Source: Azolla caroliniana
Taxonomy: Eukaryota; Plantae; Polypodiophyta
Direction of reading: 5' to 3'
Length of the DNA stretch: 13,143 nucleotides
Assembly (NCBI GenBank): GCA_043228905.1
Contig: JBHGNT010000991.1
Location: forward strand, 1 to 13,143
Positions 7,626 through 13,143 of the stretch are shown here, piece after piece. Both the position numbers and the translations under genes were made by a program. Numbering within the stretch: position 1 is the stretch's first letter; each line of letters begins with the position of its first letter. The notes under the pieces were generated by a model. That model ran no database searches, was not told the DNA's origin, and worked only from the letters and a program-made list of their open reading frames with translations.

Positions 7626-8143
7626 CAAGTTACGTCAAAATTCAATCCAAAATTTCAACAAGTTTTTAGATTTAGGAACTACCATTTTAATGTTTTCTTG
7701 CTTATAGTAATGAAATTCATCCACGGTCAACAAATACCTTACACTCTACAATAGTGTCGCATGTGAACGTCGAAATATTCTCTATATGAATGTTGCATGC
7801 AACAAGCTTCTCGTTATCAGAATGAACCCACTCCTATGACAAGGGATGGGTCTTTAGATTTTGCGTTATCTCTTTAAGCAAACTTATAGCAGTTTGATTA
7901 ACACCATCCATTGTGGCTTAAAAAGGCAACCCAACTACACATCATTTGCTTGTATTCAATTGTTCAATAGTCGATGCGTTGGTTCCATTATAAACTTGAC
8001 AACCATGTGATGACACTCATCTTTGTAAACTAAGAACAACCCCACAACAAAGTACCAACATGTTTTTCTTGCATAAATCACTAACATGGATGTTTGGAAT
8101 TTAATGAGGAAACATTGGCAAGCACGAAAGTAAATTAAACAAA

Positions 8144-8456
8144 GGGAAAAGTACCCAGATACCCCTAGAAGTTCATCTATTTACTAGAATGCCCCTGGAA
8201 GTTCCAAATTTACCAAACTACCCCTATGTCCAAAAAATTACACTTTATAACGTAATTATACACTCAAATCTACAAGCCCTATTTACCAACGATGGAGGAA
8301 ATGGACCTGAACTAGCCCTATTTACCAAAGATTTGAGTGTATAATTACTTTATAAAGTGTAATTTTTTGGACATAGGGGTAGTTTGGTAAATTTGGAACT
8401 TCCAGGGGCATTTTGGTAAATAGACGAACTTCCAAGGGTATCCTAGTACTTTTCCC
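8144..8456. mobile_element. Mutator-like (MULE) MITE / foldback element, 313 bp
   Basis: 128-bp TIRs at 8144-8271 and 8329-8456, with 9 mismatches by manual count, starting GGGAAAAGTAC. Perfect 9-bp TSD TTAAACAAA at 8135-8143 and 8457-8465. 57-bp spacer. Confidence 0.95.
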
Positions 8457-9555
8457 TTAAACAAATCATGCCAAAGCTTTTCAGCTCATTCAATAACCCA
8501 TTAAAAATTTAACAAGGTTTTCACTTAACATTCATTTGTCAATAGGTTTGCACCCTCATATTGTGCATTTTTTAGCACCATATATGTGCCACAATTTATT
8601 GAATAATACTCACATTTGCTCCATGAAATATAACATTATGTTGCCATTATCATCCAACTGACCTCCCTATGGGTTAATCAAATTTTCATGATCCATACAT
8701 TTCTCATAGTATTTAACATTTGCTTGATCACAGTCAAGCATCATCTTATAGAAAATGGATTGCTAAAGAACATTCCAACATGACCCACATTTTTCTCATG
8801 AAATTCAACATAATGTTCTCACTATAATCTTGAACTTATTATTAGAGAATCCACATTACTATTGCCTCTAGTAACAACCAATGTCGTGAGCACTCCTAGA
8901 GTGGAGAGCAATCACAATGGACGCAATTTTCAAACTAACCCTTCCAAAACTGCATTTTCTAGCATAAAATAGAATGATGTGCATAAAAACATTGTTCATT
9001 GTGCTATCGTTTCATTTTACAAGTTCTCGATGAGGGAAAGAAGGCACTTTTTGGTTACGTATCAAAGTCAAATTCAAACAATGGATCTTAATGTTGGATA
9101 ATATTGCAACATTTCACCATGTGTAGATGGGCATGGACAGATTAATTGATTGATTTATTCTATGGTCCAATAAACCCTTATATGCATATTTAACTAGGCT
9201 CTCAACACTTTATTTCCATCTATGTGTCTTTATGTGAACCTTGATGCCTTTGAATGACATCCTATTCAGCAAGCTCTCCCATAGTGGTGAACGTCTATGA
9301 TGGAAGTAATGATCGATAAAGAAATAGAACAGTGCAGCATATAGTGATGTGGATAAAAAGACATAATGGACCATGCTAAGTTTTCATCGTAGACTATGTC
9401 AAGCGAGGTAAATAACTCACACATTGATCACGTATCAAAGACGAGCTAAATCAAACATGGGCATCATTGTTGGATAGTAATATTGCAGCAAATGTATACA
9501 TGCGGATGGATGAATTGATGGATCCATCTCCTTGTGTATGGTCCAACATAACACA

Positions 9556-9630: not shown

Positions 9631-9860
9631 TTTATGTCCATATCTCCCATGTCTTCGTGTCCATCTCTCTCGTGTCTTCGTGTCCATCTCTCTCCCATGT
9701 CTTCGTGTCCATCTCTCTCGTGTCTTCGTGTTCATCTCTCTCTAGTGTCTTCTTGTCTGATCTCACTTGGTGTCTTCATGACCATTTGTCTTGAGTCTTC
9801 TTGTCTAATCTCCCCATTTGTCTTCATGTCCATCTCTCTTTGTTGTCTTCATTATGTGTC
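9631..9860. repeat. 23/25-bp minisatellite, ~9 copies
   Basis: Consensus TGTCTTCGTGTCCATCTCTCTC(G/CCA). Units start at 9650, 9673, 9698, 9721, 9746, 9771, 9794, 9819 and 9844, and degenerate rightwards. Confidence 0.9.
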
Positions 9861-9884: not shown

Positions 9885-10066
9885 AATGGGAGCTTTTGGA
9901 GGAATGGAAAGGAAATCCTTCTTCCTGCCATAGCCAACGAACTGTAATGGAGCTTTTGGAGGAATGGGAAGGAAATCCTTCTTCCTGCCATAGCCAACCA
10001 ACAGTAATGGAGCTTTTGGAGGAATGGAAAGGAAAATCCTTCGTCCAGCCATAGCCAATTAACTGT
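9885..10066. repeat. 60-bp tandem repeat, 3 copies
   Basis: AATGGAGCTTTTGGAGGAATGG(A/G)AAGGAAATCCTTCTTCCTGCCATAGCCAAC.AAC.GT starting at 9885, 9946 and 10006. Confidence 0.95.
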
Positions 10067-10317
10067 ATGAACGAACCAGGCTGTCTGTGCGCTGTGGTGT
10101 GTGTAGGGCCTAGGCCACGACGATGGAGACAGACTGACATACCGGAATCGCTCCATCTCTCTCACACGTCTGAGTGCACACTCACCTTTTCCTTGAATCT
10201 CTGCTTCATCATGTCCTCACAGTGTCGATGAATCTGTGTCTCTCCTTCACATCATCCAGTTTTGTTCCTGGCAAAAATCAAGCGGCACTTTTGAGCAGTA
10301 TCCACCAGTACAAAAGT

Positions 10318-10709
10318 ATGGAAAAGAATGGCAATGCTCAGTCTGTAGGCGTGGATCTGGAAAGTCCGTTGCTGCTCCATGGACCTATATCTAAATCGGC
10401 ATCTCGCAATATGCATGAGCGTGAAGAAATCTTCAAGGAATCAGACAATGATGATGATGATTACCATTATTCTGATGATGATGAATCTTATGTGAATAAT
10501 GTCCATGGTAGCATGTCTGATGATGATGAATCTCGGGTAAAGGATGTCGATTGTGTACAGAATGTTGATGATGGATGTTGTACAAGGGAAGGATGTAATG
10601 TAGACACTGTTTCTAGTGGCCCCACCATCGAAAGCCTGGATTATGATCCCATTCACAGTATTGTATATGCTAAGACTGCCAAAAAACCTCAGAAAAGGAA
10701 GTTTTATGG
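10318..10709 (+). CDS. CLC: CLC-family anion channel/transporter, first coding exon (an upstream in-frame ATG at 10228 is also possible)
   Basis: aaaagtATGG context. Acidic N-terminus ending TIESLDYDPIHSIVY; ESLDY is the N-terminal motif of plant CLC-a/b/c/d/g and animal ClC-6/7. Donor GG|gtaatc. Confidence 0.85.
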
Positions 10710-11437: not shown

Positions 11438-11496
11438 GTATTCTGGAATCACTTTCACCAAATGGACTCTAACTATACTTATCGGAGCCATAGTTG
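11438..11496 (+). CDS. CLC: CLC exon 2
   Basis: Acceptor catatag|G, donor G|gtgagt. Encodes (G)YSGITFTKWTLTILIGAIV(G), matching the CLC helix B pattern KW.....IG...G. Confidence 0.9.
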
Positions 11497-12517: not shown

Positions 12518-12570
12518 GATGCATAGCATATTGTATATCATATTTCCAGGGACTTATAATAGATTACAAA
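12518..12570 (+). CDS. CLC: CLC exon 3 (absent from the ORF track)
   Basis: Acceptor ttcacag|GA, donor AAA|gtaagt. Encodes (G)CIAYCISYFQGLIIDYK. Phases 1/0 bridge exons 2 and 4 exactly. Confidence 0.85.
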
Positions 12571-12673: not shown

Positions 12674-12808
12674 AGGACGTGGACACAGAGTACGATAGAA
12701 CATGGGCTTTGGATTTCCTTCATAGGCTATGCAGGTTTTAGTATTATGCTGGTTACTCTGTCAAGCTGTTTAGTATTATTTTGGGCTCCAGCTGCATCTG
12801 GTGGTGGG
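12674..12808 (+). CDS. CLC: CLC exon 4
   Basis: Acceptor gtgcag|AGG, donor GGG|gtatgc; 135 nt. Encodes RTWTQSTIEHGLWISFIGYAGFSIMLVTLSSCLVLFWAPAASGGG, i.e. helix C and the AP.A.G.G loop. Confidence 0.9.
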
Positions 12809-12934
12809 GTATGCAATGTTTATTCTTTTATGAGCCTAAGGTTACTTTAAACACATACACACATAATATGTATATATATTATGTACATATGCATATGTCA
12901 CAAGTATATATTTGTTAATGTTCATATGTTGCAG

Positions 12935-13009
12935 GTAACACTTGTCATGGCTTATCTGAATGGCAATGAGATTCCTGATCTCTTAGGAGTGAGGACACTT
13001 GTGACCAAG
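12935..13009 (+). CDS. CLC: CLC exon 5
   Basis: Acceptor ttgcag|GTA, donor AAG|gtcttt; 75 nt. Encodes VTLVMAYLNGNEIPDLLGVRTLVTK, matching CLC AYLNG..IP......TL..K. Confidence 0.9.
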
Positions 13010-13108: not shown

Positions 13109-13143
13109 ATCTTGGGAACAATATGTACGATATCTTCTGGATT
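13109..13143 (+). CDS. CLC: CLC exon 6, cut by the window edge
   Basis: Acceptor ttatag|ATC. Encodes ILGTICTISSG, matching helix E (K)I.G.I..V..GL, just before the G(K/R)EGP motif, which lies outside the window. Confidence 0.85.
   Translation, partial: MLGTICTISSG

Follow-up and report, generated by a model that had tools for sequence, protein, structure and literature searches.

The window, which is the whole 13,143-nucleotide stretch of Azolla caroliniana DNA analysed here, covers exons 1 to 6 of an intact CLC gene that belongs to an ancient green-plant clade. After splicing, the filter loop of the encoded protein reads GGGVTLVM where CLC-7 has GSGIPQIK, and the two align without a gap. 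From sequence comparison and by analogy with published mutants, we propose that the gene product would exchange anions for H+ at the vacuolar or endosomal membrane through a loosened inner pore, likely less chloride-specific, a reading to which we assign a probability of roughly 0.55.

Gene model, junctions and contig

All coding features lie on the forward (+) strand. As originally predicted, the six window exons splice in frame at GT-AG sites and furnish 249 codons without a stop. Exon 1 (10318..10709) begins with the ATG and encodes an acidic N-terminus followed by an ESLDY box at 10630; its joint to exon 2 is found in the RNA-like contigs of runs X2, X3 and X4. Exon 2 (11438..11496) is placed by joints in RNA-like contigs and by frame, exon 3 (12518..12570) by joints in X3 and X4 and by frame. 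Exon 4 (12674..12808), again placed by joints in RNA-like contigs and by frame, encodes helix C and the C-D loop and closes with three Gly codons (12800..12808), the middle one of which (12803-12805) occupies the Ser-cen position (EcCLC S107). The filter motif is then interrupted by a 126-base GT-AG intron (12809..12934) that is skipped in the X2, X3 and X4 contigs. The first 15 bases of exon 5 (12935..13009), at 12935-12949, encode VTLVM in place of IPEVK at the start of helix D, and AYLNG follows. Exon 6 (13109..13143) is cut at the contig end; exons 6-22 are found on G000:C7, up to position 3588737.

The 12808/12935 junction, for which a check in RNA had been proposed, is found spliced in RNA-like contigs from three runs (X2, X3 and X4), which belong to two studies. 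The X3 and X4 contigs skip all five window introns, and X2 skips three of the five, the 126-base motif intron included. Among the joints listed in the run contigs there is no alternative at the motif intron, and in run X1, which is probably DNA, no exon joint was seen. The RNA nature of X2-X4 is presumed, from the tool's guess and from their intron-free joints; none of the runs listed was on record as RNA. In exon 4 all four of the differences listed for the related runs are synonymous (X3 has six there, two beyond those listed), while in exon 1 the residue is altered by 15 of the 21 codon changes listed, which is what one would expect if the membrane domain is conserved and the N-terminus is free to vary. 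The gene is real and conserved, and it looks expressed.

On C7 the full gene extends from 3575791 to 3588737, with 22 exons, 21 GT-AG introns, 893 amino acids and a single terminal stop. Exons 7-22 were assigned by GT-AG sites, frame and homology, and read junctions cover exons 1-6 only. The part encoded on C7 supplies the gating Glu255, the proton Glu334, Tyr623, Asp626 and two CBS domains; reading the downstream sequence, as had been advised, thus revealed intact exons with the gating Glu, the proton Glu and the central Tyr all kept. Compared with full-length clade members, the gene model scores 46-59% over 810-890 aligned columns.

The window itself is the entire 13-kb contig G000:C991, which repeats the stretch G000:C7:3565452-3578632 at 98.3-98.6% identity and stops within exon 6 of the CLC gene. 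Judged from this sequence match, it is probably an alternate haplotype kept as a separate contig. Three coding bases differ between the window copy and the C7 copy, one of them changing a residue. Immediately upstream of the transcribed start region of the CLC gene lie two tandem repeats, a 60-base unit present three times with 91% matches (9889-10067) and a 23-25-base unit present nine times (9635-9850). Further upstream, two 130-base stretches at 8142-8271 and 8329-8458 align in reverse with the C7 copy at 93-95%, which suggests an inverted pair spaced about 58 bases apart, possibly a small fold-back element.

A CLC clade of the green lineage

Relatives were gathered with three queries, a CBS exon, a moss homologue at full length and the motif region from a conifer, and with an HMMER search. 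The alignment holds 238 of 258 proteins, 20 that fell outside 600-1200 amino acids being excluded, and the motif columns were removed before tree building. The derived loop then maps to a single branch, which holds 134 of the 238 rows (support 95) and has a core of 127 rows (support 100), and in a quick IQ-TREE tree of 51 rows all 24 sampled clade rows again share one branch (support 96). Since the rows are related and were gathered with clade members as queries, row counts here and below do not represent independent events. Plant CLC-a-d and CLC-7 are split from the clade by a branch of support 100, and its neighbours in the tree are CLCs with GSGIPE and GPEGP, one of them named from the stramenopile Aureoumbra. 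The Azolla caroliniana gene is sister to gymnosperm-type rows, above the lycophytes (98), which is the position expected for a fern.

Named members come from algae (Chloropicon, Chlamydomonas, Volvox, Coccomyxa, Klebsormidium), bryophytes (Marchantia, Riccia, Nothoceros, Physcomitrium, Ceratodon, Sphagnum) and vascular plants (Selaginella, Diphasiastrum, Taxus, Cryptomeria). With 134 of 238 rows on one branch, apart from CLC-a-d, the sequence data support the distinct and conserved CLC subfamily that the original prediction had suspected, ranging from chlorophytes to gymnosperms; the worry that the motif might be unique to this assembly is dispelled by its occurrence from algae to conifers. 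No flowering-plant or fern name occurs among the 134 clade rows, and because many of these rows are nameless, loss of the clade from angiosperms is only likely. Some database names mislead: the Physcomitrium member P0016 is called CLC-d and the Tetrabaena fragment P0294 is called CLC-a. The Myrmecia member P0037 carries an extra Pfam domain, PF12906 (which we take to be RING-variant), before the CLC domain and may be a fused gene model.

A third green-lineage group has been named before. Scholl et al. 2021 (bioRxiv 10.1101/2021.04.07.438841) mention, in a single sentence of the preprint, a third subclade CLCv (subgroup III) that occurs across Viridiplantae and is absent from vascular plants; that sentence gives neither a motif nor a function. 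CLCv and our clade are alike in that each is a third green-lineage CLC group beside CLC-a-d and CLC-e/f, and the clade has named members from prasinophytes and chlorophytes up to bryophytes, some of them in species sampled for CLCv, namely Chloropicon primus, Coccomyxa subellipsoidea, Klebsormidium nitens, Marchantia polymorpha and Physcomitrium patens. By elimination and from these shared species, the clade is probably CLCv as that sentence describes it. They differ in range, since CLCv is called absent from vascular plants there and the clade includes Selaginella, Diphasiastrum, Taxus, Cryptomeria and the Azolla caroliniana gene; going by the same sentence, the vascular members were either missed or CLCv was drawn differently. 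Beyond it, no title on the clade, its motif or its function was among the literature matches listed, in a search that reached only a minority of the subscription journals. Probably, then, the clade already has a name, yet it is uncharacterised as far as the literature covered goes.

CLCs with GSGIPE number at least four in the same genome, which also encodes two CLC-e/f-type members. Canonical CLCs are therefore already present, and the motif gene is an extra paralogue. A Pfam scan of the genome gave 19 matches, none of them on C7, and missed the motif gene itself, so that every paralogue count is a minimum; when one helix-Q/R exon served as the query, the C7 copy was the sole match. The subgroup-I CLCs on C5, C9 and C16 (L007, L008, L009, L023) have Ser at the filter in four of four cases. 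Within this same lower-bound Pfam scan, no CLC with the nitrate-type Pro was found in the Azolla caroliniana genome.

Outside the clade, the best solved relative both by sequence (E 7e-105) and by fold is CLC-7. An ESLDY box, the gating Glu, the proton Glu, the Tyr and the CBS pair are common to CLC-6/CLC-7 and the clade, whereas CLC-7 has GSGIPQIK, GKEGP and His three residues after the Tyr (Tyr+3) where the clade has GGGVTLVM, GQEGP and Asp. The clade member P0007 scores 355 bits against CLC-7 and only 269 against CLC-a. Arabidopsis CLC-a/b (Pro, NO3-/H+) and CLC-c/d/g (Ser) share the family and the domain layout; the clade forms a branch separate from them, and at the filter the Azolla caroliniana gene has neither Ser nor Pro.

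For the fold we modelled the homologue P0010, which is 56% identical to the Azolla caroliniana protein, with a 110-row alignment (mean pLDDT 84.2, pTM 0.85). In this model helix D begins at the motif Val, and the C-D loop and the start of helix D are predicted with confidence in their usual place. The best fold match is CLC-7 (TM 0.89 by target), with CLC-6 and CLC-a also matched, and CLC homologues carry PF00654 (Voltage_CLC) and PF00571 (CBS). On sequence and predicted fold, the gene product belongs to the CLC family and is of the eukaryotic CLC-6/7 type. Structure searches found no solved structure inside the clade, and the ESM Atlas gave generic CLC clusters only. The N-terminus is probably disordered, going by a pLDDT below 50 in the N-terminus of the modelled homologue.

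CLC-7 and CLC-6 are lysosomal and late-endosomal 2Cl-/H+ exchangers, and acidic dileucine motifs act as sorting signals. Amino acids 15-20 of the Azolla caroliniana protein (10360..10377) form such an acidic dileucine motif, a candidate vacuolar or endosomal sorting signal. A loose version of this pattern occurs in 14 of 20 streptophyte N-termini, Azolla caroliniana included, against 5.2 expected from shuffles; it is absent from the remaining 6 of 20, among them three gymnosperm-type rows. Together, the kinship with CLC-6/7 and the N-terminal motif make a vacuolar or endosomal location likely.

Filter loop and pore residues

Compared with GSGIPEVK, the loop has five substitutions (S>G, I>V, P>T, E>L, K>M), as had been noted from the window alone, and the four canonical paralogues of the same genome confirm the contrast. 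Of the land-plant rows, 17 cover the loop; 16 of them have the same eight residues and the other differs at a single position, so that chance or an assembly error is not the source of the motif. Gly at the Ser site, which had been put forward as one of the distinguishing features, is indeed fixed in land plants (17/17); it does not hold clade-wide, where the 134 rows have Ala (60), Gly (59), Ser (7) or Thr (1) at the Ser-cen position, with a gap in 7. Because the seven rows with Ser have it within an otherwise odd loop, the Ser change is not the clade-defining trait. P0101, P0120, P0135, P0139, P0140 and P0196, which combine Ser at the filter with an otherwise derived loop (GSGVSLVM), appear as natural intermediates.

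More uniform are the neighbouring positions (EcCLC numbers 109, 110, 112 and 113 were counted from S107 and E111). The loop Pro (EcCLC Pro110) is present in none of the 134 clade rows versus 88 of the 104 outside. The loop Glu is mostly replaced by Leu (98 of 134), and EcCLC position 113, which is Lys in 93 of the 104 outside rows, is Met in 114 of the 134 clade rows. Both flanking loop Gly residues are kept, in 125 and 126 of the 134 rows, respectively. One sequence, P0163, was labelled canonical by rule, yet its loop is a misaligned end and not GSGIPE.

The residues that run the exchange cycle are retained. The gating glutamate (EcCLC E148, here Glu255) is kept in 131, the proton glutamate (EcCLC E203, here Glu334) in 134 and the central Tyr (here Tyr623) in 133 of the 134 clade rows, and none of the three varies across the 110-row alignment. 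At the barrier, F348 and I356 correspond to Tyr526 and Ile534 in the Azolla caroliniana protein; all 18 land-plant rows have Tyr at the former and Ile or Val at the latter. Outside land plants the F348 position is often small (Ala 39, Ser 24, Cys 10 and Thr 5 of 134), and a small residue is found there in 21 of the 104 rows outside the clade as well. Around the gating Glu, GxEAP, with Ala for the Gly that follows, occurs in 23 of 134 clade rows (for example P0014, P0023 and P0037) and in 2 of 104 outside, and the residue before the gating Glu is Gln in land plants versus Pro in most algae.

A column scan of the alignment identified Tyr+3 as the clearest clade-specific column. An acidic residue (Asp or Glu) stands there in 128 of the 134 clade rows, including 127 of 127 in the core, and in none of the 104 outside; the six exceptions all fall within the seven basal rows of the clade. 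The Azolla caroliniana gene has Asp626 at this position, and Ile or Leu occupies it in the three paralogues checked in that genome. Loss of the loop Glu is thus matched by a new Asp or Glu at Tyr+3, which suggests, from the alignment, that a carboxylate has been relocated to helix R from helix D. Additionally, the helix-Q Lys has become Asn in 128 of 134 and the Asp of the RRxF box has become Glu in 112 of 134 clade rows. Lys at Tyr+7 is found in only 3 of 133 clade rows against 46 of 84 and 9 of 14 in two outside sets. Near Tyr+7 the clade has one extra residue, and 92 of 133 clade rows carry Arg at Tyr+6; the Azolla caroliniana gene has neither Lys at Tyr+7 nor Arg at Tyr+6.

Transport mode and biological meaning

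Several of these positions have been mutated in other CLCs. Park and MacKinnon 2018 report that EcCLC S107G doubles the Cl- rate and lowers H+ coupling 3-fold, that S107G/F348A nearly abolishes H+ coupling, that bulky F348 and I356 are a mark of transporters and that CLC-1 I581 (Tyr+3) is a barrier-lining residue (PMC6019066). Chen and Chen 2003 equate ClC-0 E127, I515 and K519 with EcCLC E111, I448 and T452, place positions 127 and 515 at comparable distances from both sites and describe E127Q alone as near wild type (PMC2229543). I515E/E127Q slows the fast gate of ClC-0 (PMC2229583), and a negative charge on I515C gives a lower open-channel current with outward rectification (PMC2234078). 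According to Leisle et al. 2022, Ser-cen is important in CLC-0 and matters little in CLC-1 and bCLC-K, in both of which Ser-to-Pro leaves selectivity almost unaltered; backbone amides carry much of the selectivity of CLCs, and the determinants of anion selectivity and H+ coupling are still debated (PMC9726985).

The equivalents of EcCLC S107G and of ClC-0 E127Q/I515E are combined naturally in the Azolla caroliniana gene. Those mutants are single or double changes, whereas the clade gene also alters Pro110, the Lys at EcCLC 113 and the helix-Q Lys. By analogy, a changed selectivity or coupling is plausible. In the mechanism that we propose, the outer gate and the proton path would still drive the exchange cycle. 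Missing the Ser hydroxyl, the central site would bind anions more weakly and the passage from the central to the inner site would be wider, and together these two effects would lead to faster anion movement and partial slip without protons. In place of the lost loop Glu, the helix-R carboxylate would regulate how the inner site is occupied from the cytosol, and, deprived of its usual nearby Lys, it would lower entry from the cytosol and introduce rectification.

A point against the loosened pore is that the mutant data describe individual changes, made in a bacterial exchanger or a fish channel, and several co-evolved changes in the clade may cancel each other. The Arg at Tyr+6 could, judging from its place in the alignment, neutralise the new carboxylate, though not in the Azolla caroliniana gene, which lacks it. 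The near-wild-type behaviour of E127Q and the minor role of Ser-cen in CLC-1 and bCLC-K soften the analogy further. The main rival is an ordinary, tightly coupled Cl-/H+ exchanger in which the loop and helix-R changes compensate each other and backbone amides still bind the anion, so that the sequence differs and transport differs little. Retention of the gating Glu, the proton Glu, the Tyr and the bulky barrier residues agrees with such a protein, as do the conserved flanking Gly residues, the selectivity carried by backbone amides (PMC9726985), the comparable positions 127 and 515 (PMC2229543), and the model of P0010, which with high confidence puts the C-D loop and the helix D start where they normally lie. 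We nevertheless find it rather doubtful. S107G by itself shifts rate and coupling in EcCLC (PMC6019066) and a negative charge at ClC-0 I515 is not neutral (PMC2229583, PMC2234078). Moreover, the clade gene is maintained alongside four canonical paralogues, which suggests a separate job.

The opposite departure, a channel-like CLC with largely uncoupled flow or one for a larger anion (nitrate, bicarbonate or a small organic anion), would leave the glutamates for gating only. A proton Glu in 134 of 134 rows makes this distinctly unlikely, and so do the Tyr and Ile/Val at the barrier in the Azolla caroliniana gene and all land-plant rows. Gly or Ala at Ser-cen together with the loss of Pro would widen the loop, as this alternative demands, and the nitrate-type Pro is absent from the four subgroup-I paralogues found. 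The often small F348 residue outside land plants resembles S107G/F348A, in which H+ transport is almost lost (PMC6019066); small residues are, however, seen there in outside rows too. To a decayed CLC-d copy, mis-splicing or an assembly error we give virtually no credence. The window is a small duplicate contig cut within exon 6, and NCBI names the moss member CLC-d. Against this stand the junction in three runs, the intact 893-aa frame, the motif from algae to conifers and the branch of support 100 that sets the CLC-a-d clade apart. Pseudogene, mis-splicing and CLC-d orthologue were all rejected on the used junction, the intact frame and the separate branch.

The loosened-pore exchanger thus remains our preferred reading. 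A bolder version of it, which we consider unlikely as a whole, would make the clade a third plant CLC class on a billion-year scale, in which a carboxylate tethered on helix R takes over from the serine loop both the inner gating and the selection of anions. Such proteins would move a non-chloride anion, nitrate first, into the vacuoles of algae, bryophytes, ferns and conifers, and flowering plants would have dropped them once the proline-type CLC-a/b took over.

In summary, the present analysis adds the vascular-plant range and the putative move of a charge from helix D to helix R. If the clade is CLCv, as is probable from the sentence that names it, the range of that group is corrected to include lycophytes and gymnosperms. 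The database names CLC-d and CLC-a mask a separate gene, one that is apparently missing from flowering plants. Orthologues exist in Marchantia (MPTK1_2g12940), Physcomitrium and relatives of Chlamydomonas, where knock-outs and vacuole recordings are feasible. The clade is a natural experiment in which the exchange machinery has been kept, Ser-cen has been dropped and the pore carboxylate would sit on another helix.
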